A model generated the notes under the pieces. The model saw nothing but the letters and a program-made list of their open reading frames with translations. It ran no database searches and was not told the DNA's origin. Of a DNA stretch of 56,191 nt, positions 1,363 to 41,406 are shown one piece after another (the first letter of the stretch is position 1; each line of letters begins with the position of its first letter). The position numbers were made by a program, and so were the translations under genes. Origin of the DNA: a virus (taxonomy: Duplodnaviria; Caudoviricetes); the IMG/VR virus record IMGVR_UViG_3300027608_000002, positions 1 to 56,191 of that record; one strand, given 5' to 3'.

Positions 1363-1406
1363 GGTATTCTCCAAGGAGTTAGTACGGGCGTCCCCGCTTG
1401 CTGCAA

Positions 1407-4931: not shown

Positions 4932-7900
4932 AGTCTCCCCGTGAACATAGGTTGGCCAACCTTGCCCGTATCAATGTGGAAACCAGATATTGCACGAACC
5001 GGATGGATAAATCCACCACGGGCTTCGTTCATTCTTGGTTTTGACGGATCAAACGTGCCTTGATTGCCCGACGCAGACTTTATCTGCTCCGGATCAAAGG
5101 CAATGTAGCTGTCTTGCGCCTCGGGATAAACCTTTTTGAACGCATCGTCGCCGAGGTGGCTTAGATTTTCAGGACTTGGTCGTTTGCCTAAATCATTCAA
5201 ACCTTCGCGACGGTTTAAGTAAACAATGCCGTCGTGGCCGTGTTCTTTTAAAGCGTTTTGAAGTGCCTCTTGTGGTTCAGAGTTTTCTAAATATTTAAAA
5301 CTTTTTTCCACTATTTCTTTAGACAATTGAGCCATAACACGCCGAGCAGAAAAAGAACCGTTGTCTTGCAAACGAATTGGATTCTTGATGTTCAGGTGAA
5401 CGGGGTACATGTGCCCACGTTGTTCCGGTTCAGATCCGGTAAAATCATTTCCTTGTTCTTGTGGCCCAAAATGACTGCCCATCTCACTGGATTTGGTATC
5501 AAACGTTTCAAAATCTCGCGTTGGACCGTAAACGTCATTAGAGTCTGTTTCGTCAAGGTATGCATCGGACATAGGTGACAAAGGTTTTCGATATTGGCCG
5601 CGAGTGCCATGATAAAACACCTTCGGAGACCCGTCAGGATTTTTTAAAGATGGGTGCGCGTCTTTGTGAAACTCAGCCAAGCTCTCCCCACGGCGTGGAT
5701 CGTCGTGAGGAATGTAGTTTTCCTGATGCTTGGCGAGCTTCTCGTGTAATGTAGGCTCGACTTCGCCGCCTTCTTTGTAGGCATGCCATACAGAGCCTTC
5801 AGCACCACCGCCAGAAGATTTCTTTTTGGGAAGAGGCGTTCTTAACGGCCCCGTAAACGGTATCCCCGATCGAGACATGCGCTTGGTTGCATCATCAATA
5901 AATTCAGAATGACTATCTTTCACCCTCGACGCTAGGTCTTTGAAGCCTTCCTCGGATGCGGTGAGATAAGTAAGTCTCTGTTTGTAGGTATTCCAAGCTT
6001 TTTTGCCTCCGCCAGTGAGAGCGTTGGATCCTTGGGGTCCGTTGAGGATTTTCCGTGCGTCACTTTGTGAGAGGCCGGAAGCGACCGATTGATCGATGAA
6101 TTCATTTCGTATCCTTTTTAAAAGTTGTTTTTTAAGATCTGTGTATTCTGAAGCCGTATTATACACAGATTTATAATCGTGCGCCATGATTTTTCCAGTT
6201 GGATATAAATTTCCTAATGACTGGTCAGCAGCTTGTCTTAATTTGTTATGGTCAATACCATGAGCTCCGTCATCATCAAAACGAGGAATAGTATCAAACA
6301 TGTATCCATTTGGATGCCGCATAAAACTCATATCATGGCCAATATCTGACAATTTCTGAGCAAGTTTACGAATGTGTTGCGGTTCAATCGTATCGGTTGT
6401 TGGAACAAACAAAGAGTGGCCGCGGATATAACCATTCTGTGGATTTTGGTTAGGATCCGCCATATGAATGGCTGATGTGGCCATTGCATCTTGTTTTAAA
6501 TGTTTGCCGACAATTGCATGCATCATTGCAATCTGTTCATCATCCATATTTTTAAGAGGAACACGGATATTGGGCGATACAGCCCCCTCAAACGTTCCAC
6601 CCGCGTCAAATGGGTTTTCACTGGTGGGTGCCGTAATGCGCGTGATATCCGAATTGCCGCTTACATCCCCCGTAATGGCCTTTTTAAGCATATCCCAAGG
6701 GTGTTTTCCGCGAGATGAATGGAACATCGCGGTTGTTAGACCTTTGAGGTACTGGTCTTGCGATATTTGATCATCATTATCGACCGCATGGCGGTATAAT
6801 TCAGCCGCTTGGGCACCAACAGGCGTTTGGGTCGTGCCAAACTCAACGGTTGATTTAGGCGCGGCTCTGAACCCAGGCGTTGTACGCCGCAAAGCATCGG
6901 CAAACTTCGGATGCATAAAAGCTTCACGAGTTATTTTGTCGCCTTCAATGCCTGGAACACCCGCATTTTGAAGTTTTTTAATAAGTCCGCCCCAAACCTG
7001 ATGATAAGCATCGCCAGATGGTTCATTCCGAAGGTGAACCCACGCAGGGGCTTGAAAATTCCAACTCTGATATTGGAATGGAAGTTCATGACCATGCACA
7101 TTGTTATACAAATCGCGAATTTTGTTAAAATATAACGCCATTGGCTCATGTAAAGACTGGTTTGACGACATAACATCGTCAGGAACGCCAAACATTTTGC
7201 CAACCCAAACGTCATTGACGGAAATTGGAAACCTTGTTGGTACGCCGCCTGTCAAAGCAAGCGTATCAGAGAAGTGCCCCGTCTTGTTCCCAGGCAAAGC
7301 TGACGATCCACCAGAATGCGAACGCGACAAAGCCTGTCTTACGGTTGATGGAATCGTTAAATCAACGTCCGCCGGAACGCCGCGCAAATGTTGGGATAGC
7401 ACGCCAAGACCTCTTTCAAGGTTTTCATCTGGTTCTGCACGAGCAGATGTCGCCCCAACAAGATCCATGCCCTTTAAATATTCTTCTGGCGTCAATTCTG
7501 GCATATTCTCAGCCATTTTTTCACCAGAAAGCTCATACCAAAGGTGGTCACGGAACGGCAATGACATGGATTTGTCCCAGTCTTGCGATCCAAAATGAGG
7601 TTTTACGTCATGTTCCGTCACCGCATTCTTGGCGGCTTGAGAGCTTTCACCAACGGATTGCTCCCAAAGATTTTGCAATACTTCATTGCCACCCTTATGC
7701 GCCTCGGCAAGAGCTTGAGCAGTGCTATTTGCATATGCTTGATGAAACTTACTGTCAGGATCCGCCGCAAGGTTTGACAAAGCAAGCTTGTGCGCACTGT
7801 CTGCTTGCCGGATTTGGGGCGTAATTTTAAACCCAACGCCTGGGCTATCAAGAAATTGTTTTGGTGAATCAGCCCAACGGCCTCCATTAGGAGCTCCCGC

Positions 7901-8872
7901 TGTGTAAGTGCCGCCAACAACTCGATCTGCTTCTGGAACGATGGTGCTCAAACGTTGGTTAACAATATTGCTCCCAACTCGCGTGTCAGCCCGAGCCGCC
8001 GCAACTTCTTGTGGCGTTGGAGGTGCTGTTGTGGGTTGCATCGGTTGCCCACGTTGGAGAATGGAACCAATCGTAACAGGTGGAGTACCACCGCTTGCCA
8101 ATCTAACTTGCTCAACAGGCTTAACTGACTTAGCTAACCCCAACACTCCGCCGCCGTCCGCTTTGACAATGATGTGATGGTACACGGGGTGCTCTTTCTG
8201 CTCTTTTCTTTTCACCAAGATGGATCCGACTTGTGGTCCGAGGTCAATATTGCCTCGAGTTGTCGGGCGGAGCCTTGGCTCGGAAGGCAAGTTTTCATAC
8301 CGCGCCAGATCGACGCCCTTGGGGAAATGAACGTTCAATGCATAGTAATGCTTGCCACGGTGCTCTACAGAGACAATTGTGTTGGTGTCCTCGTGGCCTT
8401 CAGGGGCATCTTGCCACCGCCATCCCGCCTTTTGCTTAAACAGGTTGGTCTTGGCAACCGCGTTGCCCTTGCCGGACGTGCCCGTCTCATCCACTGCATC
8501 CCTCGAAGCTGTGAAATAAGGTTTCCCGCCACTGCCGATGCCGATCGAAGCCGCCGCGGATTTGTGGCCAGTCATGTCTTGCTTGTCGGGCATTGATAGA
8601 TACTGCCCACCCGCCGGACGATCATCCTCGGGGAACATGCGTTGCGGCTTAGGAAACACCGACATCGGGTTCTGGATGTCGGGAGTTACGTCGCCGCCAT
8701 CCGCACGAACCTGACGAGGAACGTTTGGCATGAACTTCGAAGACGGGAGCTCCTGTCCACCAGCTCGTTCCTTCGCCATCTTTGCGCGGCGCAATTCAAG
8801 TTCGCCACCTTCCGACAGCCTTACTCGAGCAACGGGCTTAACACTCTTGGCAAGTCGGATGGCGTCATTCAT
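4928..8872 (-). CDS. Large polyvalent protein: unknown domain, HhH/DUF7178-like domain, C-terminal ART-like domain
   Basis: WYE..ATS..N..GNKTGHF..NDVW..FQAPAW pattern; C-terminal FYHGT..YPVHLNIKNP..GHDGIVY..YIAFDPEQIKSA; ATGA overlap with portal. Confidence 0.7.
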   Translation of the reverse strand: MNDAIRLAKSVKPVARVRLSEGGELELRRAKMAKERAGGQELPSSKFMPNVPRQVRADGGDVTPDIQNPMSVFPKPQRMFPEDDRPAGGQYLSMPDKQDMTGHKSAAASIGIGSGGKPYFTASRDAVDETGTSGKGNAVAKTNLFKQKAGWRWQDAPEGHEDTNTIVSVEHRGKHYYALNVHFPKGVDLARYENLPSEPRLRPTTRGNIDLGPQVGSILVKRKEQKEHPVYHHIIVKADGGGVLGLAKSVKPVEQVRLASGGTPPVTIGSILQRGQPMQPTTAPPTPQEVAAARADTRVGSNIVNQRLSTIVPEADRVVGGTYTAGAPNGGRWADSPKQFLDSPGVGFKITPQIRQADSAHKLALSNLAADPDSKFHQAYANSTAQALAEAHKGGNEVLQNLWEQSVGESSQAAKNAVTEHDVKPHFGSQDWDKSMSLPFRDHLWYELSGEKMAENMPELTPEEYLKGMDLVGATSARAEPDENLERGLGVLSQHLRGVPADVDLTIPSTVRQALSRSHSGGSSALPGNKTGHFSDTLALTGGVPTRFPISVNDVWVGKMFGVPDDVMSSNQSLHEPMALYFNKIRDLYNNVHGHELPFQYQSWNFQAPAWVHLRNEPSGDAYHQVWGGLIKKLQNAGVPGIEGDKITREAFMHPKFADALRRTTPGFRAAPKSTVEFGTTQTPVGAQAAELYRHAVDNDDQISQDQYLKGLTTAMFHSSRGKHPWDMLKKAITGDVSGNSDITRITAPTSENPFDAGGTFEGAVSPNIRVPLKNMDDEQIAMMHAIVGKHLKQDAMATSAIHMADPNQNPQNGYIRGHSLFVPTTDTIEPQHIRKLAQKLSDIGHDMSFMRHPNGYMFDTIPRFDDDGAHGIDHNKLRQAADQSLGNLYPTGKIMAHDYKSVYNTASEYTDLKKQLLKRIRNEFIDQSVASGLSQSDARKILNGPQGSNALTGGGKKAWNTYKQRLTYLTASEEGFKDLASRVKDSHSEFIDDATKRMSRSGIPFTGPLRTPLPKKKSSGGGAEGSVWHAYKEGGEVEPTLHEKLAKHQENYIPHDDPRRGESLAEFHKDAHPSLKNPDGSPKVFYHGTRGQYRKPLSPMSDAYLDETDSNDVYGPTRDFETFDTKSSEMGSHFGPQEQGNDFTGSEPEQRGHMYPVHLNIKNPIRLQDNGSFSARRVMAQLSKEIVEKSFKYLENSEPQEALQNALKEHGHDGIVYLNRREGLNDLGKRPSPENLSHLGDDAFKKVYPEAQDSYIAFDPEQIKSASGNQGTFDPSKPRMNEARGGFIHPVRAISGFHIDTGKVGQPMFTGRL

Positions 8873-11205
8873 TGCGGTTGCTTTCCTGTGATGGCCGGAA
8901 TCACACTGCCGAGGAGCCGGATAACTTCGTCCTCGCTCTCAGGATGAACCGCGAGGTTCTGCGCCAGATCAATCATCTGGATCCGCTCTTTGGCAAGCAT
9001 CTCTTGCTCTTCGACGGCACTGTCGCGCTCATCCTTCTGCATACTGGCCTGAAGCGAAGCGGCTTTCAACTTGGTGTCCATCACCTTGGCGTCGGCCATC
9101 TGCTTCTTGATCTGGAGATCCGCGGCATCCTTTTCAGTCGGCCCTTGCTGTTCACCACCCGCAAGACCTTCTTGCTGTGCCTTGGCCATGTCAAGTTGAA
9201 GACGAGCCTGATCCAACGCAATCCGAGCCTGTGCTGCGCCTTGCTTCGTATCGGCATCTTGCTTCTTGATCTGCATCTCGGCCATTTCCTTCTGCATTTC
9301 AGGAGGAGGAGAGCCTTGCGCCTCTGGCGGAATCATGAACTGCTCAGGGTTCGACCAACCCACCGCCTTCAACGCCGCGGTGTCGATCGCAATCGGATCG
9401 TACAGCGTCGGGTTCGATGCCTGAATTTGCTTCAACGCCATGATCTTCATGAGCCGTTGCGTCTGGCTCGCGGTGTTAGGATCAGCTTGCGGGACGAGAT
9501 CAACTTGGTTCACACCACGTAAGAAGGTTTCTTGATCCCATGCACGCGCAGGCTTGCGGTTCTTTTGCCAGAAGCTCTCAGGGTTTTCCTTAAAGCACTG
9601 GACAAGGAGCGCGAACTCTTCGGCCTGAGAGGCGTGCATCCGCTTATGCACCGCGTTCAGAACCTTGGTGGCCTGATCGATCAGCGCGATTGTCGTGCCC
9701 ACGGGGGCATCCGCCCGACCTTCACCCACGGCGGCTTCGGCTGTGCCGCCAATGCGCATGCCTGTTTGAGCCATGTTTTCGATGAGGGCCATCAATGTTT
9801 GAGATGGTTCCTTGTATGGCAGAGGCATCACGGCCTGACTGATCGGCATGCCGCCCGTCTTGACCAAAGCCCCACCGCCTGGCGGAACGCGGAAGATGTT
9901 GGTGTTCTGGCGTGCGCCAGTGTCGGCATACAGGAAACCTGGGAAGTTGGCATACATTCCCGCATCCAACAGTTCTCTTTGTGCGGCAGTAATGGCGTTG
10001 GTCGTGTTGCCCAAGATGTGGAGCAAGCCGATGTCATAGAAACCCATGCCAGGAACGAAGGTGTACTTCACGAAGTTCTGCCGAGCTTCGGGAAGTTCCT
10101 CGGTATCCTCGTCATAGTTGCGCACGATCGATAGGATCTCGTGCGACGATACATCGATTGTCACCCGATACGGGATCTCGAGGCCAGTCTCTTTGCCTTT
10201 GTGCTTATGCTCGAAGCCGTTGACGTCCAGTTCGCAATAGCACTCGTAGATCTCGCGATCCCGATCGTCAGGGTTTGACTGCCCCGCGCTGATGCCCTGT
10301 TGCGACTTCTTCTCGCGCTGTGTCGCATCAAGATCAACTTGCTTAGGGGTGGAGAGATCCAAGTCCTTGTACGCACCAATGATCTGCATGCGCTTCACCA
10401 CCGATGGCCGCATCATTATGCGATGCGTAACGCGCTTGGCGTTGCTCAGATCGGTGGCCGCGTTGTTGACGATCATATCGTCGGCGTCAACTGATTCGGA
10501 AACAGGACGGCCTCTGAGTGGACAGAAGTAGACTTTCTTGAACGCCGTGCCGCCAAAGCCCAACATGAGAAGCATGCGGTCGGTGTCAGGATAGTACTCT
10601 CTGGCTGTGGAGGTAAGGTAGTGGTTGAGGTCTTTCTCGAGATCGTTGGCAAGCGTATCACTATCAAGGGTGGCATTGTTGTTGTCCTCCCGCACCTTGA
10701 CGGGCCCGTCGGTCGGGAGCAACTCGGAGCGTGCATTGGCTTGGAACCGGAGCACCGCCTCGAGCAACAGAGGATGCCGCACTTTGCTCATGCCCTCGAC
10801 CGGAGCACCGTCTGCCGCACCCGAGATGCCAGGCAACTCGATCCGGAGCCCGAGGAGCTTGATGCCCTGAGCACGATCCTCAATCCACTCCTTGCGGGAG
10901 TCGAGGTCGTCCTGAATGCCGCGCATGAGGTCTTCGGAGATGCGGGACAGTTCCATCGCGGGGATCTCGTCCACCAGATTTTCGAACCATCCGTTGGTGC
11001 CCTCGGCCCCCGCCTTCTCGAGCGGACCACCGTCGAGCTTCAGGGTGATGGAGCCGTCATCGTGCTCGATCGTCAACAGGTTGCCTTTGTCATCGAACTC
11101 GTGCTGATCGCCACCCTCGTCCGCCATCTCGATGATTACGCCATCTTCGATCGAATCTCGATCATCGATCGGGGCAGGTTGGCGAATGTTGGGGACAAGC
11201 GACAT
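8869..11205 (-). CDS. Portal protein
   Basis: 778 aa directly after TerL; HPLLLEAVLRFQA, GTAFKKVYF, YTFVPGMGFYDIGL, Q-rich coiled C-terminus. Confidence 0.85.
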   Translation of the reverse strand: MSLVPNIRQPAPIDDRDSIEDGVIIEMADEGGDQHEFDDKGNLLTIEHDDGSITLKLDGGPLEKAGAEGTNGWFENLVDEIPAMELSRISEDLMRGIQDDLDSRKEWIEDRAQGIKLLGLRIELPGISGAADGAPVEGMSKVRHPLLLEAVLRFQANARSELLPTDGPVKVREDNNNATLDSDTLANDLEKDLNHYLTSTAREYYPDTDRMLLMLGFGGTAFKKVYFCPLRGRPVSESVDADDMIVNNAATDLSNAKRVTHRIMMRPSVVKRMQIIGAYKDLDLSTPKQVDLDATQREKKSQQGISAGQSNPDDRDREIYECYCELDVNGFEHKHKGKETGLEIPYRVTIDVSSHEILSIVRNYDEDTEELPEARQNFVKYTFVPGMGFYDIGLLHILGNTTNAITAAQRELLDAGMYANFPGFLYADTGARQNTNIFRVPPGGGALVKTGGMPISQAVMPLPYKEPSQTLMALIENMAQTGMRIGGTAEAAVGEGRADAPVGTTIALIDQATKVLNAVHKRMHASQAEEFALLVQCFKENPESFWQKNRKPARAWDQETFLRGVNQVDLVPQADPNTASQTQRLMKIMALKQIQASNPTLYDPIAIDTAALKAVGWSNPEQFMIPPEAQGSPPPEMQKEMAEMQIKKQDADTKQGAAQARIALDQARLQLDMAKAQQEGLAGGEQQGPTEKDAADLQIKKQMADAKVMDTKLKAASLQASMQKDERDSAVEEQEMLAKERIQMIDLAQNLAVHPESEDEVIRLLGSVIPAITGKQPQ

Positions 11206-20110: not shown

Positions 20111-20419
20111 ATGACAATGAACGATAAAGACAAGATTGAATTGGCGTTTTTGAAATTTCACATGGACAACCCTCATGTGTATGAGGAGGTCAAGAAGATT
20201 GCATTAGACATAAAGAGGTCTGGCAGAGACTTCTATGGCATTGGGGCGATCTTTGAGATTATCCGATTTCATCGAGCCATGACAACGAACGATCCGGTGT
20301 TCAAGCTCTGCAACAACCACCGAGCTTTGTACAGTCGGTTGTTAATGAAACAGGTGCCTGAATTGGAAGGATTTTTTCGGATCAAACAGAGGAAATTATC
20401 TGTTGATCACGGTGAATGA
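20111..20419 (+). CDS. Conserved hypothetical phage protein
   Basis: F..FH..NPHVY...IFE.IR....FKL.NN..A.Y.R. Confidence 0.7.
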   Translation: MTMNDKDKIELAFLKFHMDNPHVYEEVKKIALDIKRSGRDFYGIGAIFEIIRFHRAMTTNDPVFKLCNNHRALYSRLLMKQVPELEGFFRIKQRKLSVDHGE

Positions 20420-21020
20420 AATTCAATCGTGGGAATGCGAGCAATGGGTGTTGCACAAGCATTATGCCAAAAGGATGCCGCCTATCAGCCATGCCTACGG
20501 CCTGTTTGACGACCAAACCTTGATTGGCGTTGTGACCTACGGGTCGCCGCCATCTCGCCCGTTGTGCGTTGGTGTGTGCGGCATTGAACACGTTGATAAT
20601 GTTTTGGAGCTAAACCGTTTGGTTCTGGCCGACAACGCAAAGAACCAAGCGAGCATTCTGGTTGGCAGATCGTTGCGATTGCTTCCAAAGCCGCGGATCG
20701 TTGTGTCGTTTGCTGACACGGCTCAAGGGCACGTTGGATATATCTATCAGGCGACGAACTGGCTTTACACGGGCCTGAGCAAGAAGCGTAACGATCGCAT
20801 GAGCGTTGGAGACAATCGCCACCCGCGGACGGGGTTCGATCCAAACGGCATGTTGGTCGAGAGGAGCCGCAAGCATCGATACGTTTTTTTCGTTGGGAAT
20901 AAGAAACAAGTCAAAGAATTAAAATTAGCGTTAAAATACCCCGTTTCGTCCTATCCGAAGGGTGATAGCGCACGATACGATTCGTCCGGCGACGTTGAAA
21001 CGCAAATGAAATTATTGTGA
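20403..21020 (+). CDS. mom: Mom-family (GNAT-fold) DNA adenine-modifying enzyme
   Basis: KHY, GVVTYG, LELNRL, VSFADTAQGHVGYIYQATNWLYTG, KHRY pattern; start codon uncertain. Confidence 0.75.
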   Translation: MITVNEIQSWECEQWVLHKHYAKRMPPISHAYGLFDDQTLIGVVTYGSPPSRPLCVGVCGIEHVDNVLELNRLVLADNAKNQASILVGRSLRLLPKPRIVVSFADTAQGHVGYIYQATNWLYTGLSKKRNDRMSVGDNRHPRTGFDPNGMLVERSRKHRYVFFVGNKKQVKELKLALKYPVSSYPKGDSARYDSSGDVETQMKLL

Positions 21021-32216: not shown

Positions 32217-35200
32217 TTACTCCTTTGCGCCTTGGATTTCTCGCCCGTCAGGGAGAATAACCATAACACCTTTTGGCGTTTCTCTGATTATTCTAAGAAT
32301 TTCCTTGTTTGGTGTGTTTGGGGGAATAGCAACAGTGTTATCGTCTTGAATAACTGGTTCTTTTGGAGTTCCAAGCCCCATACTTTTAAGTACGTCAGGG
32401 TTAGAACCTGCAAAAGGTTTAATTTCTTTTTTGGCGTTTGAAATAAACAAATTAGCATCGTTTTCAGGATTTTCTCCAAAATTCATATTGAAAACAGAAA
32501 CATCACGAGGTTTATTTTTAATGAACTCAGAAGACCTCTTGTAACCAAGATCTCCATACCCCACTGCGTCTGTAATGTTTTTATACAGAGCATCAGGATT
32601 TTTTTCTGGGTCAGGAACGGTTACCATTGCCATTTCGCCACCTGCTGCGGGGGCTGATTTTGCAAATTCATTTGTTCTTGTAATAGCAATCAACATTGCA
32701 TCTTTTGCTGCCGCATCAAAATTTGGTGCCGCTTCGGCATCAAATCCTTCTATTCCAAAGATATTTCTCATGAAATCATTAAGTTGCGCAAAACCTTGTG
32801 AGCCTCGGCCTGCACCTTTCCATTGTTGATAAATACCAGCAAGGCTTATAAGGCGAGGGCGAAGATCTGATTTCCAAGATCTGACAAAATTATTTGATTC
32901 TTTTAACTGGTCATTAAACATGTCAACATTGGCTTTAGCCGTAGGGTCTTCACCCGTTACAACTTTGCGTCCTTTATATGTAAATTCACCAGGCGTCCCA
33001 CTTTCCGCGGCATCGGCCAACCCTTTGAGATAATCAACGCCAGTAATCCCAATCTTTTGCCCCGTTTGCGGGTCATAAACAGTTTGGATTGTGTTAGCTA
33101 CTGACGCAATTTGAAGTTGCACATTGTTCAGTTTTTCAATTTCTCCTTTAATAACATCTGCTTGTGCTCCTCTTGCAACTCCAAGTTGGCGGTTTAATTT
33201 TTCAATTGTCGATTGGATCACAGCCGGATCTGACAAATAGGAAAGTGGAACAATTTTTCCCTCGCCCAAATCAACTGTCTTTTCTTCCGCAACAGGTTTT
33301 TCTCCAACAGATCCAAGACCACTTTCGTCTATGGTGCCCCCGCCTTCTATTACTTTACCCGCTCCTCCAAGGCCTTCCCCACCAACTTCAGTTGTGCCGG
33401 ATGGAGACGTTTTTTCTGCGCCGCCAAGTCCGGTTATTGAAGAAGACAAATTAAGTTCGTTGGCAGCACTACTCATTATGCGGCCATACTCTTCAACGCT
33501 CACTTCTCCTCCATTCAGATCACGATAGCCAATAATTTTACGGCCAGTCGCATCCATAAGAGGTTCAAAACGATCTTGCAGATATTTAAGAGCTTGGATC
33601 CCTTGGGTCCGCCCAGTAATATCAATTCCCTGTTGCGCAAGGCCGCGCTCGAGAGACTGGCCACGGAGCCCTGCATACGTCTTCGCGCCTCCGCCAAGAC
33701 CTTGCAATAGTGCGGCACCAAGATACGGACTGTTTGACGAAGCCATTGTGCCAACGCCGCCCAAAACTGACAACAGAAGATCGGTGGAATCCGGACCTTC
33801 ACGGTTTTTACTTTTTACGTCTTGTGCGCTTGATTTTGAAAACCCAACTGATTCAGCAAGTCTATCAATCATTGATTGAGATTTAGGTGGGTTCAACCCA
33901 CCTTCGCCTACGTCGGCGGAAGGTGTTGCGTTTTTGGCAGGAAGATCTTTTTCGCCCATAAGTTTCCGAGCAACTGTCCAAGGTTTCCAACCATTTTTTG
34001 CGGCGTAATTATTCGACCAATCAATTGAAGCGCGAATAACGTCTGGGTTTTTTCGAACTTCTGGGTCTCTCAAATCAAAACCTGTTTGCTTGGTAAACTC
34101 ATCTCCAAGACCAGGATTTGAAAATTGTTTTGATGTATTCCCATAATGCAATTGCGCAATGCCGTAAGAAGACTTGTCATCTCCTTCCGCCAAGGGATTA
34201 AACCCGCTTTCCCCATGATAAACTTTTGCCGCAAATTGCGGGTCTTTATGTCCTGCACGTTTGGCAGATTCAATTGCGTAGTTTTTCCAATATTCAGGGT
34301 TTGATTCATCAACTGCGCCATCTGTCGCATAACCCGCACGACCGCCATTCTTCATGAACCCAGAAGCGAGCTTCGCCATGTCCATGATGGCTTTCATCGT
34401 TGGATCTTGCATTGCCCCAGGAAGGTGTTTTTGATCAGGCATTTTAAATTTGGACGTGTCGTCTGGAATGTCGAGCTTTTTTGGGTCGGAGTCCAAATCG
34501 TAAGGCATGCCTCCGGCAGCGTACCCTACAAGGCCACCACGAGCTTCTTCTTTTTTATCCAGATCTTTATAAAATTTATAAAGATCTTTTCCTTTTGTTG
34601 CCAGATCCGCAAAATCTGTTGCGGTCCCAAGACCTTGCTTCAAAAGGCTTTCTGGAATAGGAGGTGCGCTATCGGGAGTCATGAGCCTTCCAACAGGCAA
34701 GCTCGCCTCCGGAACGCGGCCATGCTTGCCAATGCCACCAGACAACCCGCGAGCGGTTGGAACATGGCTACGATCGCCACTGTCAAAGAACCCTTGTTGA
34801 CGGGAAAGGATGTTGTAAATTGAGTATGGGTCGTAAGGATCGTAAGCTCCGCCTCCTGAAGCAAAACCTTGACCCATGTGTTGCATACCAACAGCACCGC
34901 CTTCAGACACCAAACCACCTTCTTCAAAATGTCCGCGGCGAGCGGATTCTTTTGTTGCCGCATCGTAGTCAACAGTCTTGTAACCCTTAGCCAAGCCAAC
35001 GGCTTCGGGGTGGTGCTTTTCAACGTTCTGCGCCGAGAGGCCAATTTGCTTCGGTCCGTCCTCGCCTTTGTAACGGAACTTGATGATGTCCTGACCGTCG
35101 AAGGTCTTACCGATCTTTTCAATGTCGTCTTTGAGCCGCTCATCCGAGAAGAATGGCATTGGCTGAGTTGTGGTTGTGTTCGAGCCGGACAACGCACCAG

Positions 35201-35906
35201 TGCCCATTGCAACGTTCGCAAGGAATTGAGCAACTTGATACGGGTATGCCTGTTCTTGCAAGAACTGGTTGTACAGAGCGGTCTTTCCGGCCTGTTCAGT
35301 CTGTTGACCAAGGGTTCCCGCGCCGATTTGCGCCTGAGATCCCTGTAGCCCCGCCTGTTGGGCGGCAAGGGCTGTTTGACCACGTTGGCCGAGACCTGAC
35401 ATATAATTCTGTGCGGCGTTCTGGAAACCTTGCGATTCCATGCCACCAATCGTCTGACCGAGAGCAAGGTTCTGTTGATTGATCAAGTTCCCCATACCAA
35501 TATTGGCTCGATCGCCGCCGAACGCACCTTGGCCGATCGCGGATCCCTTCATCTGAGCTTGCTGTTGACCCGCAACATTTTGCATCTGATTTCTTGTCGA
35601 GGCGACCGCGCTCTCGAGGTAAGGGTTCATGTAACCCTTTACGCCTTGGCCAAAACCTTCAGTCGTATAACCTTGCTGAACTTGGTTCAAAACAGGTTGC
35701 GCGGCATTGGCATACTGGTTCATGCCAACCTGACCTGTCCTTTGTTGTTCATTCAACGGAGCAACAAATTGTTCCGGAGTTGTGCCGTATTGCTGAAAAG
35801 GCTTTGCGGCAACGCCCTCGGCACGAGTGTTTACGGCATTGTAACGCGCCAAGACTTCGGGAGGAATTGTGGTCGCTGAACTTGTGGTTCCGGTTTTCCC
35901 GCCCAT
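32217..35906 (-). CDS. DNA ejection protein with internal peptidase-S74 chaperone domain and lytic-transglycosylase-like domain
   Basis: MGGK N-terminus, Q-rich GAFGG.R region; FSDERLK.DI..G..AQ.VE...PEAV..VDY; GESGFNP..SYGIAQL. Confidence 0.75.
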   Translation of the reverse strand: MGGKTGTTSSATTIPPEVLARYNAVNTRAEGVAAKPFQQYGTTPEQFVAPLNEQQRTGQVGMNQYANAAQPVLNQVQQGYTTEGFGQGVKGYMNPYLESAVASTRNQMQNVAGQQQAQMKGSAIGQGAFGGDRANIGMGNLINQQNLALGQTIGGMESQGFQNAAQNYMSGLGQRGQTALAAQQAGLQGSQAQIGAGTLGQQTEQAGKTALYNQFLQEQAYPYQVAQFLANVAMGTGALSGSNTTTTQPMPFFSDERLKDDIEKIGKTFDGQDIIKFRYKGEDGPKQIGLSAQNVEKHHPEAVGLAKGYKTVDYDAATKESARRGHFEEGGLVSEGGAVGMQHMGQGFASGGGAYDPYDPYSIYNILSRQQGFFDSGDRSHVPTARGLSGGIGKHGRVPEASLPVGRLMTPDSAPPIPESLLKQGLGTATDFADLATKGKDLYKFYKDLDKKEEARGGLVGYAAGGMPYDLDSDPKKLDIPDDTSKFKMPDQKHLPGAMQDPTMKAIMDMAKLASGFMKNGGRAGYATDGAVDESNPEYWKNYAIESAKRAGHKDPQFAAKVYHGESGFNPLAEGDDKSSYGIAQLHYGNTSKQFSNPGLGDEFTKQTGFDLRDPEVRKNPDVIRASIDWSNNYAAKNGWKPWTVARKLMGEKDLPAKNATPSADVGEGGLNPPKSQSMIDRLAESVGFSKSSAQDVKSKNREGPDSTDLLLSVLGGVGTMASSNSPYLGAALLQGLGGGAKTYAGLRGQSLERGLAQQGIDITGRTQGIQALKYLQDRFEPLMDATGRKIIGYRDLNGGEVSVEEYGRIMSSAANELNLSSSITGLGGAEKTSPSGTTEVGGEGLGGAGKVIEGGGTIDESGLGSVGEKPVAEEKTVDLGEGKIVPLSYLSDPAVIQSTIEKLNRQLGVARGAQADVIKGEIEKLNNVQLQIASVANTIQTVYDPQTGQKIGITGVDYLKGLADAAESGTPGEFTYKGRKVVTGEDPTAKANVDMFNDQLKESNNFVRSWKSDLRPRLISLAGIYQQWKGAGRGSQGFAQLNDFMRNIFGIEGFDAEAAPNFDAAAKDAMLIAITRTNEFAKSAPAAGGEMAMVTVPDPEKNPDALYKNITDAVGYGDLGYKRSSEFIKNKPRDVSVFNMNFGENPENDANLFISNAKKEIKPFAGSNPDVLKSMGLGTPKEPVIQDDNTVAIPPNTPNKEILRIIRETPKGVMVILPDGREIQGAKE

Positions 35907-35907
35907 G

Positions 35908-36420
35908 TTAGTGCTCCGTCAAGTTTTCAGGTTGAGCTTCATCTGCCCATTCACCTGTCTTTTTGCCATAAATCCAATAAGCACCCGACTGTGGGCCAAA
36001 TTGCCGTTCGTAAAGTCTAACCTTGCCTTCAGCCCTATGAGAACTCAAGATCCCAATCACCAATGGCAATTGTAAAACTTCTGCGGCTTGTTTTGCAAAT
36101 TCACAGAGTTTTCTTGCCCGACCACCTTTTGCGCTTCGGTAATCAGGATGAACGAAAATTGCCCGTTCGACAATCGTCAAATCGTCCGAGTACCAAAGAG
36201 ACTCTGTGCGCAACAGGATTGCGGCTTCAAATTGCTCTTCAGGATTGCCAATGATGCCGACAATGCCATGATCCCTTGTCAGCCCCGCCCAAAGCTCGCC
36301 TAAGAGCTTCATAGGATTAGGATTGGTCAACCCGTTCTCTTCGCATGCCGCAGTAGCCAGTTTCATCATCCCATCAATGTCTTCCGGCGTGCCAACACGA
36401 ACGCTGAGTTCTTTTTCCAT
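35908..36420 (-). CDS. GNAT-fold acetyltransferase-like protein
   Basis: VRVGTPEDI; IFVHPDYR..G..RKL; LYER. Confidence 0.7.
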   Translation of the reverse strand: MEKELSVRVGTPEDIDGMMKLATAACEENGLTNPNPMKLLGELWAGLTRDHGIVGIIGNPEEQFEAAILLRTESLWYSDDLTIVERAIFVHPDYRSAKGGRARKLCEFAKQAAEVLQLPLVIGILSSHRAEGKVRLYERQFGPQSGAYWIYGKKTGEWADEAQPENLTEH

Positions 36421-36422
36421 AA

Positions 36423-37211
36423 TCAATCTCTCTTAGGGCCAGGTAACTTTTTCAACGTCTCAATAGTTCTCTTTCGATATTGTTTAACAAAATGATCGAG
36501 AACTTCATGCCCATGATCCATGTCGCCATTGCCAATTTTAACAACATCATCAGGCTTTATAACATATTCTCCACCCGCCGCCACAATCTCTACAGGAGCC
36601 GCCCCGCCGGATGCTCTTGCGCCGTATGGTTTGCCTTCGGCATACGGGCTCGGAGAAGGGTCGTAGGGCTGTTTGTCGTTCTGCATGTAAGGTTGTGAGG
36701 AGAACATCTTTCTGGCGACCTTGAACCCCGCCATTGTGTTGCCTTCGCCCATCGCTGAAATGATATCAGCCGGAATCACATAGGATCCGGAATCAACATT
36801 CATCGGCAAATGATCCGTTCGTCCGGCGACCGGAGAATGAATTGGTCCTTCATGAACTTTATTCATTGGCGAAGTTCCAAAAGTTGGAACAGTTTCTGGA
36901 TAATCAACTTGGCGGGGTTTTGGAAACCCAAAATTTCCACCACCCGCCTTCGCCGTCCGAGCAGAAATTTTAAACGCTTTGGCGGTTGGTGCGCCTTTTG
37001 AATTTGGCTTCCGCATTTTCTCTTTTGAACCGTGGGCAATGCGTTCTCGTTTGGCGTGAATGTTGGCGTACAACCCGCCGCCAATTGCTTTTGTGTTCCG
37101 AGCGGTGTTCAACGCCGCGGCAATGGCCTGATTTTGCGGGTGGCCAGAGTGCATCATCTCCGAAATATTGGAGCTTATGGTCTTTTGGGACGAACCTTTT
37201 GTCAGCGGCAT
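36423..37211 (-). CDS. Modular late protein with duplicated G[ES]YVI domain
   Basis: ATG 37211 with GAGG SD; MPLTKGSS module, GLYANIHAKR module, GRTDHLP..GSYVIPAD and GGEYVIKPDDV. Confidence 0.7.
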   Translation of the reverse strand: MPLTKGSSQKTISSNISEMMHSGHPQNQAIAAALNTARNTKAIGGGLYANIHAKRERIAHGSKEKMRKPNSKGAPTAKAFKISARTAKAGGGNFGFPKPRQVDYPETVPTFGTSPMNKVHEGPIHSPVAGRTDHLPMNVDSGSYVIPADIISAMGEGNTMAGFKVARKMFSSQPYMQNDKQPYDPSPSPYAEGKPYGARASGGAAPVEIVAAGGEYVIKPDDVVKIGNGDMDHGHEVLDHFVKQYRKRTIETLKKLPGPKRD

Positions 37212-37218
37212 AACGACC

Positions 37219-37569
37219 TCACGTATAAGTGACAGAAGCAATCTGTCCTGTTCCAGTGGTGATGACAAGGCCGTCTGCAAACGGGACTTGAATTTGAACC
37301 ACGCCAACTGTGTTGGGGACAATGTAAATCCGCAAACCTGTTAGAGAGTTAATATTTGATGAATCGTAGACGGTTCCGGTTGTTGTTCCCGCTACAATAA
37401 CAGAGATATTGGCGAGCCAACCGCTTCCAACTTTAATTTGGTACGTTGTAGCCGCCGCAATTTCTTTTGTGTTGTTTGTTCCCGCAAACTTGGCCAATGC
37501 GCTTGGATATTCGCCAATTGCAATGACGCCGTTTTTCTGGGTGGTGAGGATGTCGTCAAGACTTGCCAT
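37219..37569 (-). CDS. Small beta-rich virion protein
   Basis: TGATG coupling to nozzle gene. Confidence 0.6.
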   Translation of the reverse strand: MASLDDILTTQKNGVIAIGEYPSALAKFAGTNNTKEIAAATTYQIKVGSGWLANISVIVAGTTTGTVYDSSNINSLTGLRIYIVPNTVGVVQIQVPFADGLVITTGTGQIASVTYT

Positions 37570-40169
37570 CAGAATTTCCCATCAAGTTGAGCACGGTAAC
37601 GCAGTGCGCCAATTCGGAAAAATGTTCCGTTCAACGCAACATCATTTGCGTCTGCCGTGGAGCACGAAATACGAAGCAATCGATTACGAATTCTGACGCT
37701 CAAATACTGCGTGGTTGAATTCATTTCGTATGGGCCATATTGGATAGGAGTATCTCCTGGATAATCCGCCCCATAAAACGTTAGATACATGGTCGCAGAG
37801 GTCGCGGAACTCGTCGATTGCTGCGCGGTTGTTTGCCATTTGAAATCAGGCCAAATTTGATCAATGAAAATCAAATTGTCTGCATCGTTCAATTGCATGT
37901 AACCCGTTTCAAATGATGACACCATTGGCGAAAAACCAGCATCGTATCCGATTTCATGTTGCCAGATGTAGCCATCGTTGTCCGCGCCAAGCGGCGACCC
38001 AAGGACGGATTGATCGCACCAAGCGGCACGATCCAACAAACCGTAATCCCATGCTTGGGTGAGGGTGTTATATTTAACGTATGAATCGTTATACGTTGAA
38101 TTCGTTGATGGGTAATACCACATCACTTCGTCAAAAATAGAATTTGTAGCGCATTGGATCAGGTCGCTATAAGGATAGCCATTCGGGTCCAAACTGGTGT
38201 TCAAATTTTGAAACACTTGATCCCAAACAGGACAAGCCATGTCTTGTGGACCACCTTCGGACAAAACGTTGAATCCTCCAGGAGACATCCAATATGTTGC
38301 TCTCCCAAGAATGCCAACTGCCTTTTGCGCAAGCAATCCAACACCGTCCGCGAGCTTGTTGAACCCGAACACATTTGGGTAGCCAATGTATTGCATCGCC
38401 CAAAGAGCAAGATCGGTCCAAATCAAAGCCTGTTGGGAAGCCTGAATTCCGCCAACAATTTTGCTTCCTTCCGCAAGCCGGAAAGAACCAGCTTGGTTGT
38501 TCGCGGAGGCTTGCCAAACGGTTGCGTCTCCAACCTCCGACCAACGGATCAACAGCGGATCTTGAATGCCTGTCACGGTTGAACCGTAGGCTACGACTTG
38601 CCTCGAAGGCATTGCGATGAAATGACCTGTGTTCGCGGTCGGAGCAGTTTCCAACAAAAACATGGTTGTTGTTTTTGAAGATGGAGACCAATAATAAATT
38701 TCACCGTTTTGAACGTTTGCGGTAAGAATTTCGCCAAAATTGTTAATCGTCCAATTGGTGGTCGTTATTGTTGGAGCAGTCGGATAGCCAATTGGAATAC
38801 CCGCTCCATATCCCCCTGCGCCGTATCCGCCGCCTCCGTAACCTAAAGGAGCAAAGGCGGACGGAATGTTGTAATAATAAGTAAATTGCGCACTGCCCAA
38901 ATTCATAAAAAATGAAGTGCTGCTTGTCGCGGCAGACGAGGCGGTTATTTGATATTGGGTCGAGCTGATATATGTCGTAAAATAATTTCCAAAAATCGTT
39001 ACACCCGCAGAAGTCGTGGACGTGAGAAACGCTGCCGTAAAACCATCCTGATATGGATGGTTTGTCTGAGTAACGGTAATAGTTGAAAATCCATTAGAAA
39101 CAGTAAACTCAGGAATTGTTGAAATGCTTGTCGTTGACGTTGCAACAATCCCGACATCAATCGTATAAACGTTGAAATACAAACTTGAAGTATAATTTTG
39201 AATTGAATAAACCCCGCTCACAATCAAATTTGATATGCTGATTGGCGTTTTAATAAAAACAGAAAACCCTGTTCGCAATTGGTTTGGGGCATAAACCGTG
39301 CCCGTCCCTGTCGATGTCGTGTTGACAAGGGTTAGGGTTCCGCTCGCAAAGGTCGTTGTCGAAATATTGAATGTTGTGGCAGTCAAAGGTTGAGCGTAAT
39401 AAGTTGTTCCCGCAGTGACTCCTGTGGGGAGCGACGTGCCATAAAACACCACGTTTGTGTCGAGGGTTGGCGCAACAGCAGCTGTGACCACGGTCGGCGA
39501 CCCATTGGTAAATGAAACAGACTGAACTCCCAACCCAGTGTCGTAAATGGTGACAGTTGATGATCCGCTCGTGGTCGAGGCAAGCGGAACGGTCACCGTA
39601 TGAACGCCGCTTCCTGCCGTGGTTGTTGCGATGCCAGTCCCGCCAACCGTAGTTGACACGCCAAAAGTGTTCGCTGTTGGCGTTGGAGAGGTTGACGCAA
39701 CATAATAAACTGTATCCACAGCAAGCGGAGAGGGCAAAGTGCCTGTTGTGGAAAATACAATCGGGGTTCCTGGAGGGTAGGAGCTTCCTGTCGCAGTCAC
39801 GACTGCAGGAGTCGCGTTTGTTATTGTTACGGTGTATGTGCTTTTTGGAGAATCAGAAGTTATTTTCTGAGGAGTGATAACGTTTTCGTTTCTGCTCACT
39901 TCATCAATAACCGAAATACTTTCCTCTGCCCCAACAGCAAGAGCCGCATCCCCGACCAAATTTTGCCAAGGATGAATGTCCGTAATAGTGCTTGAAATTG
40001 GACCCTGAGTCGCCCAATCAACCCAACCGCCCATTTTCTGAACAAGGCCCATGCCTGATCTGTCAGGCACAAAACGAATAAGCTGAGACTCCGAAAACGC
40101 CGCCTCGTTCAAAGCAGGTGTTTTGTTGGTATCAATACCAGGTATCAGCTTCATCGTTGCGTGAGGCAT
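37569..40169 (-). CDS. Tail nozzle / head-closure (P22 gp10/T7 gp12-like) protein with long beta-rich insertion
   Basis: 866 aa; IRWS, NQAGSFRL.EGS.I, MQYIG.P.VFGF, EVMWYYPS, QIWPDF. Confidence 0.7.
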   Translation of the reverse strand: MPHATMKLIPGIDTNKTPALNEAAFSESQLIRFVPDRSGMGLVQKMGGWVDWATQGPISSTITDIHPWQNLVGDAALAVGAEESISVIDEVSRNENVITPQKITSDSPKSTYTVTITNATPAVVTATGSSYPPGTPIVFSTTGTLPSPLAVDTVYYVASTSPTPTANTFGVSTTVGGTGIATTTAGSGVHTVTVPLASTTSGSSTVTIYDTGLGVQSVSFTNGSPTVVTAAVAPTLDTNVVFYGTSLPTGVTAGTTYYAQPLTATTFNISTTTFASGTLTLVNTTSTGTGTVYAPNQLRTGFSVFIKTPISISNLIVSGVYSIQNYTSSLYFNVYTIDVGIVATSTTSISTIPEFTVSNGFSTITVTQTNHPYQDGFTAAFLTSTTSAGVTIFGNYFTTYISSTQYQITASSAATSSTSFFMNLGSAQFTYYYNIPSAFAPLGYGGGGYGAGGYGAGIPIGYPTAPTITTTNWTINNFGEILTANVQNGEIYYWSPSSKTTTMFLLETAPTANTGHFIAMPSRQVVAYGSTVTGIQDPLLIRWSEVGDATVWQASANNQAGSFRLAEGSKIVGGIQASQQALIWTDLALWAMQYIGYPNVFGFNKLADGVGLLAQKAVGILGRATYWMSPGGFNVLSEGGPQDMACPVWDQVFQNLNTSLDPNGYPYSDLIQCATNSIFDEVMWYYPSTNSTYNDSYVKYNTLTQAWDYGLLDRAAWCDQSVLGSPLGADNDGYIWQHEIGYDAGFSPMVSSFETGYMQLNDADNLIFIDQIWPDFKWQTTAQQSTSSATSATMYLTFYGADYPGDTPIQYGPYEMNSTTQYLSVRIRNRLLRISCSTADANDVALNGTFFRIGALRYRAQLDGKF

Positions 40170-40175
40170 GGGAGG

Positions 40176-40892
40176 TTACCTCGTTGGTGAAGCGACAGGG
40201 GATGGCGAATAGGCTGTCCAAGCTGCCGCCTCGAACTTCTTGCGGTTTTCTTCGACCAATGCACTTGCCTTGAGGGCTTGATATTGGCTTTCGTAGCTTT
40301 GCGCCATCTGAGGGTCGTCGGACTGACGACCAAAATTGCGTTGATATGCAGAAATGTAAATCATTGAAGCCATGATGAACAAATCCGGCAGATAAACGCT
40401 GATGAACGTTGTGGTGTTTGCGGCAGATAAAGGCGTCGATCGAACTGTTCCAGTCAACCGAACTGAGTATGTTGAGTTGGGCGTTGGGCCAACAATGATA
40501 TTTTGCGACGTTTTTCCTGTCGTTGCAGAATCCCCGCCGAAAACCGCAAAGTATTTCGGCAAACCTGTCGTTGAGCCGCCGCCATAAACGTTTTGAATAT
40601 ATTCTTTCCCAATCGCCAAAAGCGGAGTTGAGTTACCTGATCCGTCAATAACCTCAAACGTCTGCAAAGAAACAAACGACGATGTTGGAATCGTCAGCGT
40701 ATTATTGCTGGAAGTGAACGAATAAGACGAATCGCTGATTTGCGTCGAAAGAAAATCTAAATCGCGTTGCATTCGCAATTCAGCGTAATCAATCATGCTT
40801 GGGACGATGGTGAGGTAATTCACGTCAGTTTCTTGCACAACCGCCATCGTGGCGATTTGTTCAACGTAGGTTGCGTATGTTAATCCGACCAT
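40176..40892 (-). CDS. Head-tail adaptor (gp4/gp11-like)
   Basis: TY..Y...I.YAE.R..R, G.PKYFA, GPTP..Y, PDL...AS. Confidence 0.65.
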   Translation of the reverse strand: MVGLTYATYVEQIATMAVVQETDVNYLTIVPSMIDYAELRMQRDLDFLSTQISDSSYSFTSSNNTLTIPTSSFVSLQTFEVIDGSGNSTPLLAIGKEYIQNVYGGGSTTGLPKYFAVFGGDSATTGKTSQNIIVGPTPNSTYSVRLTGTVRSTPLSAANTTTFISVYLPDLFIMASMIYISAYQRNFGRQSDDPQMAQSYESQYQALKASALVEENRKKFEAAAWTAYSPSPVASPTR

Positions 40893-40893
40893 G

Positions 40894-41406
40894 TCACCCT
40901 ACCATTGAAGTCGATGCCGATTTAACTTCTGCAACTCTCCGGCCCCACCCCTTGCCGAACGTTTCCCAAGTCGGAAGACTCTGCAAAAACTGCAATCTAT
41001 TATCGTTGATTTTTTGCAATAAGGAAAGGGGATCTTGTGAATTAACTAAAGAGAGGGTCGCAGGTCCGATAACCCCATCAGCATTAGCACCACAAGCTGT
41101 CTGAAGATACTTGCTGGCACGAGCAGGACCACTATTAATAGCAAGATCAAAAACAGAAAAGTCCACCCCAAACGGGAGGTCGTCGCAGCGGCACTTGTCC
41201 CAGTACCGCGCTTTGTAGAGGGGAGCGACGTCTGCAATTTTGAGGGCTTTGATGTCATCTTTTGTTACCTCATGGCCTACCCACTCTTCCCAAACCTTTT
41301 TTGTGCAGCCAAGGTTCGTGGCTCCACCAGGATCTTTTGGGTGATCGACGTACCCGCCTTCATGTTTCAAAACGAGAGCTAAACACTGTTCAAAATTGCC
41401 CTTCAT
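40894..41406 (-). CDS. Endolysin, glycoside hydrolase family 108 with peptidoglycan-binding domain
   Basis: LKHEGGYVDHPKDPGGATNLG, FD.A.NSG, ADGVIGPAT, FGKGWGRR. Confidence 0.92.
   Translation of the reverse strand: MKGNFEQCLALVLKHEGGYVDHPKDPGGATNLGCTKKVWEEWVGHEVTKDDIKALKIADVAPLYKARYWDKCRCDDLPFGVDFSVFDLAINSGPARASKYLQTACGANADGVIGPATLSLVNSQDPLSLLQKINDNRLQFLQSLPTWETFGKGWGRRVAEVKSASTSMVG

Follow-up and report, generated by a model that had tools for sequence, protein, structure and literature searches.

The internal proteins of bacteriophage T4 carry a capsid-targeting sequence. Packaging and injection have been predicted for phage 'polyvalent' proteins (Iyer, Burroughs, Anand, de Souza and Aravind 2017, PMC5512222), and MuF (SPP1 gp7) and T4 Alt appear in the same article as proteins in which a constant virion-targeting part is combined with exchangeable effectors that are delivered with the DNA. 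In podoviruses, gp20-24 of SU10, which are encoded after the nozzle and the needle, are described as present in the virion and absent once the genome has been released (PMC9509320). In phage lambda, the tape-measure protein gpH is reported to be cut in a glycine-rich region to yield gpH* (~78 kDa) and gpHC, at a site and by a catalyst that are stated to be unknown (PMC12617516); the latter fragment is retained at the tail tip, where residues 818-849 bind the gpI plug (PMC12617516, PMC10721106). Here we analyze a gene for a 262-amino-acid (aa) protein encoded in the virus record IMGVR_UViG_3300027608_000002 (Duplodnaviria; Caudoviricetes), all 56,191 bp of which were included in the analysis (hereafter the window). 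The protein combines two small N-terminal modules with a C-terminal domain made of two GEYV-type units (hereafter C-domain). On balance, we favor the view that this protein is an ejected cargo carrier that is docked in the tail channel by its C-domain; for brevity, we refer to it as the carrier.

The case for this view starts with the architecture of the protein, which was compared across 80 IMG/VR loci gathered via C-domain matches (open reading frames (ORFs) of 191-631 aa, two of them cut by the contig end). The C-domain, of ~145 residues, ends the ORF in all 80 loci, and 78 of them contain the N-terminal helical hairpin of the carrier (module 1), the remaining two ORFs running off the contig. 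Between module 1 and the C-domain lies a slot that accommodates 0-4 inserts, each closing in [KR]AxGG(G) (see Table 1 for the layout in the window). The slot of the window's phage holds a cassette with the motif LYANIHAKR, and those of its relatives hold an ADP-ribosyltransferase or modules without an assignment. A relative with a 99% identical C-domain (P0002/L003) differs only by one extra module of ~140 aa, and the 631-aa protein of locus L072 contains three inserts, including an ART-PolyVal ADP-ribosyltransferase (residues 285-421) located exactly between two junctions; ART-PolyVal is also present in P0123 and P0135. By eye, the extra internal module of P0002/L003 looked GNAT-like, which Pfam did not confirm.

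By its C-domain, the carrier belongs to a large, as yet unnamed family of phage polyvalent proteins. A search with the C-domain profile retrieved 2268 cluster representatives at E <= 1e-3 (clustering at 50% identity; 157-1500 aa), including 374 at E <= 1e-30, and 3530 metagenomic homologues of the C-terminal half were found under 90% clustering. The GGEYV motif is located 41-51 residues from the C-terminus in 245 of the 269 retrieved proteins. Among 60 long members, Pfam recognized ART-PolyVal in six, NUDIX in two, and InPase, DUF7178, DUF6098 and GNAT in one each; the NUDIX, pyrophosphatase and GNAT-type domains belong to more distant members of the family. Thus, like the polyvalent proteins of PMC5512222, the members of this family are multi-module proteins that are encoded with virion genes and contain ART-PolyVal and other conflict enzymes, and several unrelated domains, including effectors, are combined at the level of the family; the carrier gene itself comes from a phage with portal and terminase genes and has a late/virion gene location. 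The C-domain does not belong to any Pfam, NCBIfam or named PHROG family, and the main text of PMC5512222 contains none of the words 'glycine', 'linker' and 'tape measure', so that the GEYV anchor and the [KR]AxGG junction appear not to be described there; a keyword search of a subset of the open-access literature retrieved no description of the domain or the junction motif either.

The genomic context of the carrier gene is conserved as well. The gene order adaptor, nozzle-position protein, 116-aa protein, carrier, GNAT acetyltransferase, ejection protein is kept wherever the contig allows, with the nozzle-position gene present in 73/73 loci, the 116-aa gene in 70/76, the GNAT gene in 67/67 and the ejection protein gene in 50/50. 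With the nozzle and needle genes preceding its block and a gene for a muralytic, transglycosylase-bearing ejection protein beside it, the carrier gene occupies the position of the podovirus ejection proteins (SU10 gp20-24; T7 gp14-16). The carrier is much smaller than the proteins of the named ejection-protein families, is modular, and has no detectable sequence similarity to them. In 52 loci (near-identical ones left out), the median identity is 88% for unit 1 of the C-domain, 80% for module 1 and 79% for unit 2, compared with 75% for the adaptor; the other neighbors have lower values, namely GNAT (53%), the 116-aa protein (50%), the nozzle-position protein (40%) and the ejection protein (39%). 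Given that the constant parts of the carrier are close to the adaptor in identity, they evolve like core channel proteins rather than like host-facing parts.

The invariant C-terminal position of the domain, the variable cargo and the fixed place among the nozzle and ejection genes require less to be assumed if the domain serves in docking or packaging than if it is a protease. From the observed architecture, family, synteny, homology and conservation, we infer three further steps, namely packaging, docking and ejection. The carrier would be packaged with the ejection proteins; the C-domain would dock the chain in the portal/adaptor/nozzle channel, in the way of the tape-measure C-terminus at the tail tip; and the chain would exit ahead of or with the DNA, so that the small modules would enter the host as beads on a string. 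The carrier resembles MuF and Alt in combining constant and exchangeable parts; unlike in those proteins, to which we saw no sequence relation, the carrier is constant at both ends with the cargo in between, and its gene is located among tail and ejection genes, not among portal and head genes.

Some of the same observations would also fit a purely structural plug or pilot of the tail channel, the basic modules of which bind the leading DNA end or line the channel, with the inserts as passengers of minor importance. The gene directly follows those for the nozzle-position and 116-aa proteins, the adaptor is matched in its degree of conservation by the C-domain and module 1, both N-terminal modules have a strongly basic composition (the pieces split at the motifs have pI values of 10.3 and 11.2), and the tape-measure C-terminus, which contains a unit homologous to those of the C-domain (see below), is found in the tail tip bound to the gpI plug (PMC10721106). 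The content of the slot, however, makes this explanation rather doubtful: enzymes of the injected-effector type are repeatedly found there (ART-PolyVal in 6 of the 60 long members and in L072, P0123 and P0135), and the one extra module of the near-identical relative P0002/L003 is a pattern of cargo exchange, not one expected of a fixed structural part.

The preliminary description of this gene, made from the sequence without database searches, distinguished two short basic modules in the N-terminal half, and these indeed match two separate PHROG families: phrog_2423 for module 1 (E = 1.6e-11, residues 1-41) and phrog_16028 for module 2 (E = 1.6e-21, residues 46-88). All PHROG families matched by the carrier are of unknown function. 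Module 1 is modeled by AlphaFold2 as two helices (residues 9-21 and 26-39; pLDDT 80-91). DUF6321 and DUF6496, which reached ESM Atlas feature scores of 0.79-0.80 for the N-terminal half, a level often reached by chance, were rejected as assignments for module 1, hmmscan returning nothing at E <= 10. Module 2 is missing from 20 of the 25 sequences of an alignment of related proteins (alignment A1), and its motif LYANIHAKR...GAPTA..F matches 85 phage records, mostly marine T7-like cyanophages, pelagiphages and roseophages. The two matches that we read are a stand-alone ORF of ~50 aa or a short N-terminal segment (L175, 1489-1647; L173, 1483-1995). Several copies of module 2 are labeled 'ribonucleotide reductase A subunit', which looks like mis-annotation.

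The motifs KAIGG, KAGGG and RASGG, to which the preliminary description had drawn attention, are real, and a motif of this kind is present at each module boundary of the 80 loci. The pattern [FYKR]AxGG occurs three times in the carrier, where 0.05 occurrences are expected from shuffled sequences, and is over-represented in five proteins of the virion block, namely the carrier and four other large ones. Within the family, xAxGG is found at most 40 aa upstream of GGEYV in 225 of 245 members. Among 476 GG runs in 198 distinct cargo regions, 49% have Ala at position -2 and 46% have Lys or Arg at position -3 (background 12% in each case), and 181 are [KRY]AxGG. The junction DNA differs at synonymous sites (AAAGCAATTGGCGGCGGG vs AAGGCGGGTGGTGGA vs AGAGCATCCGGCGGG), which indicates that the motif is conserved at the peptide level and excludes recombination homology as the source of this conservation. 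Two copies of module 2 that we read as stand-alone ORFs, both from marine podophages, do not end in AxGG; taken together with the differing codons, this indicates that the motif is a property of the fusion junction. The AxGG junctions are thus signals at the peptide level, and could act as hinges, docking motifs or processing sites.

A further explanation treats the junctions as mere recombination scars or flexible linkers and the carrier as an early protein outside the virion, in which the C-domain would be an ordinary conserved domain. Domains are often joined by Gly-Gly linkers, and the placement of the carrier in virions is a prediction; nevertheless, the synonymous variation of the junction DNA, the specific constraint at positions -3 and -2, and the fixed location of the gene in the late tail/ejection block, with a strand and overlapping stop and start codons in common with its neighbors, render this explanation highly improbable.

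Turning to the C-domain itself, the tandem G[ES]YVI units with RASGG between them that had been noticed in the carrier (GPIHSPVAGRTDHLPMNVDSGSYVIPADIISAMGEGN, residues 122-158, nucleotides 36738-36848; PVEIVAAGGEYVIKPDDVVKIGNGD, residues 206-230, nucleotides 36522-36596) are the product of a true duplication. In a BLASTP comparison of the two halves, GSYVIPADIISAMGEGN aligned with GEYVIKPDDVVKIGNGD (9/24 identical, E = 0.001 for one comparison), and the family profiles of units 1 and 2 aligned over 42 columns with a probability of 95.9% and E = 6.2e-9. Both units share a strand-strand-helix-helix pattern in the AlphaFold2 models, for which the mean pLDDT of the C-domain was 57.7 with a 25-sequence alignment and 80.5 (pTM 0.70) with a 119-sequence alignment. 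The linker between the units tolerates inserted modules, for example in P0132, P0142 and P0225. Among the 119 sequences, the invariant residues are G130, R131, T132, D133, D149 and N158 in unit 1, and A212, G213, G214, E215, G234, D239, R246, L256 and P257 in unit 2. Unit 1 keeps the GR[ST]D part and unit 2 the E...LD...R part, both of which are held by a single unit of the type found in Caulobacter phage GB2A (see below); the tandem thus looks like a sub-functionalized pseudo-dimer.

The domain lacks a Pfam model (hmmscan, E <= 10). A profile search of the carrier against the PDB yielded only ribosomal protein S3 (E = 0.43), on module 1, and the best PDB matches of the 119-sequence model had a Foldseek E of 3.3 and a VIA-align Z of 3.0; a fold search of BFVD retrieved only uncharacterized homologues from uncultured Caudovirales. 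In ESM Atlas, the nearest named cluster to the C-domain is a crAss cargo domain (0.85), a lead only. A complex prediction for the C-domain with residues 1-50 as the partner, run without controls, gave a score of 0.24 against a mark of 0.32 and speaks neither for binding nor against it.

Sequence and profile comparisons support homology between the units of the C-domain and a unit at the C-terminus of tape-measure proteins. A weak tblastn match led to the C-terminal module of a protein of phage GB2A that is annotated as a tape measure. This module is highly conserved at the C-terminus of 1713 metagenomic proteins and aligns with unit 1 at an hhalign probability of 96.7% (E = 4e-10) and with unit 2 at 96.4% (E = 1e-9); within the window, the corresponding hidden Markov model (HMM) matches the carrier gene alone (E = 8e-11). 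At E <= 1e-3, the module matches annotated tape-measure proteins in 37 of 49 phage records, namely those of Arthrobacter, Rhodococcus, Mycobacterium, Stenotrophomonas, Morganella and DSL-LC04 phages. Five examples that we fetched (four tape-measure proteins and one hypothetical protein of a pelagiphage) all contain xAxGG and then GPGT.TSDSIPA.LS.GE[YF]V, and are matched by the unit HMMs at E-values from 4e-8 to 7e-3 in a 5-sequence search.

The sequence of lambda gpH contains the AxGG and GE[FY]V motif (..KFHFATGGFTGTGGKYEPAGIVHRGEFVFTKEATSRIGVGNLYRLMRGYATGG..) just as the preliminary description had stated. The gpH motif is common to 1023 phage records; the 40 sampled are nearly all siphophages, and most of the proteins are annotated as tape measure. 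Single-sequence comparisons of gpH with the carrier gave BLASTP E-values of 1.6 and 2.5 and hhalign probabilities of 1-4%, always with the GE[YF]V register aligned. Searches for relatives of gpH gave only near-identical Escherichia coli sequences; with seven diverse tape-measure ends fetched by hand, a lambda-type profile of eight sequences was obtained, which aligned with unit 2 at 76% probability (E = 2e-5, 23 columns) and with unit 1 at 5.8%, and the HMM of which gave no significant match among the six-frame ORFs of the window (E = 0.33). The proposed homology to the tape-measure GE[FY]V domain is, then, strongly indicated through the GB2A/actinophage type, whereas for gpH itself, the example originally named, the comparison is suggestive and of moderate strength.

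The motif shared by the carrier and the tape-measure C-ends (lambda gpH ~729-785; Arthrobacter phage Kukla, Stenotrophomonas phage DLP_3, Mycobacterium phage LeBron, DSL-LC04; the GB2A type) consists of xAxGG, a short spacer, a strand-turn-strand with GE[YF]V[IVF], and a helix with G.G...L. In both, it lies in the C-terminal region, at the very end or close to it; the tape-measure proteins leave via the tail, and for the carrier, this exit is predicted. The carrier differs in that its unit is tandem, in its size, in belonging to a podovirus and in having no long helical ruler. It contains neither TMP_2 nor Tape_meas_lam_C (no Pfam match at E <= 10), for which gpH scores 2e-69 and 2e-21, and its gene is not found between chaperone and distal tail genes of a long-tailed phage.

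Two further proteins deserve mention in this connection. In the record of a second Manatee Spring phage (MW202545.1, 57 kb), a protein encoded at 20125-20460 (H45, H122; two places in the record) matches the C-domain at 28% identity (E = 2e-4) as well as the GB2A-type module at 48% (E = 7e-9), and may represent a step in evolution from the single-unit to the tandem form or the reverse. Synechococcus phage MinM2 (L083, 5335-6219) encodes a 294-aa 'calcium-binding protein' that has one YAEGG...GEYVIPADVVSGIGNGS unit at its C-terminus and, in its N-terminal part, a hydrophobic stretch rich in Gly and Ala; the counterpart of this gene in Planktothrix phage Pag-Yong1 is labeled 'extracellular solute-binding protein'.

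The preliminary description had assigned to the domain the binding or cutting of the glycine motif in trans, with TDH, GEY and DHGH residues as possible catalytic or metal ligands. In its full form, this proposal holds that the GEYV domain is a protease, or the recognition subunit of one, that cuts [KR]AxGG in cis and in trans, releasing the modules of the carrier and of other polyvalent proteins, with the same chemistry acting on tape-measure proteins. Several observations would fit such an enzyme: the genome has a single GEYV gene, whereas basic-x-GG junctions are numerous and spread over four or more other large proteins, the unit follows AxGG in 98 of 120 sequences of the GB2A type and in all 13 fetched via tape-measure matches, in addition to the 225 of 245 in the C-domain family, and the junction is conserved in the peptide and not in the DNA. 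The C-domain also has many invariant polar residues. However, neither a peptidase nor any other Pfam or NCBIfam family was detected in the carrier at E <= 10, apart from a chance-level NCBIfam match to RemB (E = 0.15), and Pfam scans of 47 ORFs of the genome at E <= 1e-3 revealed no JAB, NlpC or other protease except for a Peptidase_S74 chaperone domain. The fold comparison that had been proposed for the domain gave no match to a solved protease structure or any other solved structure (the Foldseek and VIA-align values above), which is weak evidence given that a new peptidase fold is possible. At and around the proposed sites, R131, T132, D133, E215 and D239 do not vary and the conservation of H134 and H235 is at least 90%, but H233 falls below 90% and H235 is replaced by Thr in P0203 and Cys in P0222, so that the histidines of DHGH are not invariant; the Glu of GE[YF]V is the one residue common to the carrier, GB2A and lambda unit types. 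Furthermore, cutting at every AxGG would separate the two units of the domain from each other at RASGG, and in T5, pb2 is reported to be cut after R1127, not after GG (PMC10038345). We consider a protease of this kind unlikely.

A further point in favor of processing is the cleavage of lambda gpH, the cut falling in a glycine-rich region (PMC12617516). In lambda gene H (L002), five AxGG motifs occupy residues 707-737 and 779-782. Predicted cuts after AIGG710, AVGG714 and ASGG721 would yield N-terminal fragments of 77.7-78.5 kDa and C-terminal fragments of 13.8-14.6 kDa, which match the reported gpH* of ~78 kDa and ~14-kDa peptide; this is compatible with cutting at AxGG but does not prove it. 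Lambda gpK has a domain of the JAB/MPN type, a class with cleavage behind Gly-Gly, and is a candidate for a rival catalyst. A related and still tentative idea, to which we assign a low but not negligible likelihood, is that xAxGG and the GE[YF]V unit together form a self-contained processing-and-docking cassette of tape-measure proteins and podovirus carriers that directs cleavage after Gly-Gly, either by itself or by providing the place where a partner docks.

Several points weigh against the docked and ejected carrier that we prefer. The loci were chosen via the C-domain, and the C-terminal position and the synteny hold only for this phage group and the retrieved sequences. The presence of the carrier in the virion and its predicted ejection are argued from synteny and analogy, and the docking partner of the C-domain is putative. 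The copy in the window has two small modules of unassigned function and the C-domain, with no recognized effector domain. High conservation and the invariant polar residues R131, T132, D133, D149, N158, E215, D239 and R246 would suit an enzyme. Finally, residues ~690-817 of gpH, which hold the unit, are unresolved in the cryo-EM work, and the function of the unit in tape-measure proteins is unassigned in these reports (PMC12617516, PMC10721106).

Table 1. The carrier gene, its parts and the adjacent genes in the window
Feature	Position	Strand	Evidence or remark
Modular cargo-carrier protein, whole coding sequence	36423..37211	(-)	262 aa + stop; predicted role
Module 1, constant N-terminal helical hairpin (residues 1-40)	37092..37211	(-)	MPLxxGxSQKTISxNIxEMxxxGHPxxQAIAAALNTAR
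Junction 1, KAIGGG (residues 41-46; KAIGG 41-45)	37074..37091	(-)	[KR]AxGG closes module 1 in related loci
Module 2, optional basic cassette LYANIHAKRERIAHGSKEKMRKPNSKGAPTAKAFKISARTA (residues 47-87)	36951..37073	(-)	phrog_16028
Junction 2, KAGGG (residues 88-92)	36936..36950	(-)	Motif conservation
Variable linker (residues 93-117)	36861..36935	(-)	Low conservation, variable length in alignment A1; pLDDT <50
GEYV-type unit 1 (residues 118-170) HEGPIHSPVAGRTDHLPMNVDSGSYVIPADIISAMGEGNTMAGFKVARKMF	36702..36860	(-)	Beta-hairpin and two helices; pLDDT 81-95
Pro/Tyr-rich inter-unit linker (residues 171-198)	36618..36701	(-)	Variable length; pLDDT 45-65
Junction 3, RASGG (residues 199-203), directly before unit 2	36603..36617	(-)	A200, G202, G203 at least 90% conserved
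GEYV-type unit 2 with C-terminal helix and tail (residues 204-262) ..PVEIVAAGGEYVIKPDDVVKIGNGDMDHGHEVLDHFVKQYRKRTIETLKKLPGPKRD	36426..36602	(-)	pLDDT 92-97
116-aa protein, upstream	37219-37569	(-)	Context
866-aa nozzle-position protein, upstream	37569-40169	(-)	Context
GNAT acetyltransferase gene, downstream	35908..36426	(-)	Acetyltransf_7, E = 5e-4 (below Pfam cut-off); phrog_1249
1229-aa ejection protein, downstream	32217..35906	(-)	phrog_4287, DNA ejection protein

The carrier gene starts with an ATG preceded by GAGG 7 nucleotides upstream, the N-terminus MPL... is kept across homologues, and the stop codon overlaps the start of the downstream GNAT gene; a longer ORF with a TTG start, extending to 37322, overlaps the upstream gene and was rejected as the real start. 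The virus record that makes up the window is complete and has direct terminal repeats. Its ORFs include, by Pfam, an SU10-type portal (8869-11205) and adaptor (40176-40892), and by PHROGs, a terminase, a primase-helicase, a major head protein and an endolysin. Pfam scans of 47 ORFs and PHROG scans of 26 (ORFs of at least 90 aa) revealed no tape-measure family, nor any tube or chaperone family. The phage belongs to the podoviruses and, within them, to an uncultured group of freshwater type, and the earlier remark that it has no tape measure is borne out by the complete genome, the SU10-type portal and adaptor and the outcome of these scans. The only close record is MW202675 (61 kb, uncultured genome), in which the local gene order is identical; a megablast search of phage records with 15 kb of the window gave no match. 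Further Pfam families in the genome are Mom, Cpn10, VRR_NUC, AAA_24, DUF669, Gly_rich_2, DUF7936 and DUF7173. The endolysin (40894-41406), a fusion of GH108 and PG_binding_3, lies within the structural block and adjoins the adaptor gene.

The region upstream of the carrier gene that encodes the 116-aa and nozzle-position proteins (37219..40169) matches phrog_3287, a virion structural protein, at E = 1e-52. On the other side, the 1229-aa ejection protein corresponds by annotation to 'internal virion protein D' of MW202675. It contains an internal Peptidase_S74 intramolecular-chaperone domain (residues 254-303), followed by a weak SLT match (residues 545-590). Self-cleaving Peptidase_S74 domains usually sit at the C-terminus.

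The window encodes a single GEYV protein, and the motif is enriched in four other proteins, in accord with the preliminary description, in which the GEYV gene stands alone while AxGG-like motifs are spread over other proteins. Directly after the portal gene, two polyvalent proteins of 1314 aa (4928-8872, minus strand) and 1174 aa (1407-4931, minus strand) contain ART-PolyVal domains at residues 1116-1274 and 784-941, respectively. These domains are flanked by basic-x-GG motifs, YKEGG at 1035 and NEARGG at 1286 in the former protein, and KRKYEQGG at 757 and ITEARGG at 953 in the latter. A 470-aa ORF (1-1410, minus strand) has no Pfam family at E <= 0.1 and 12 GG runs, mostly after Lys or Arg (YKKGG, MKKGG, LKKGG, QKRGG, RKANGG, HKAGGG), and has the appearance of very short basic modules strung together.

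The analysis presented here names a very large family, of 2268 clusters at 50% identity and 3530 proteins under 90% clustering, that is not covered by the profile libraries. The family has a simple grammar, with a constant head, exchangeable cargo, [KR]AxGG junctions and a constant GEYV tail, by means of which hundreds of phage effector modules can be read directly from metagenomes. It also ties a podovirus protein to a conserved stretch of tape-measure proteins, which suggests a common tail-channel docking of the proteins that exit first. The AxGG motifs at residues 707-721 of gpH predict fragments of the reported sizes and so bear on the site and the catalyst of gpH cleavage (PMC12617516). 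If xAxGG and the GEYV unit do form a processing-and-docking cassette, a single GEYV domain would mature the polyvalent proteins of the phage at their basic-x-GG junctions, freeing the effectors, and the 40-year-old question of the cut that converts gpH to gpH* would be explained, with cleavage predicted after G710, G714 or G721. Should the junctions prove to be cut, foreign proteins could be loaded into phage particles with the carrier as a natural scaffold.

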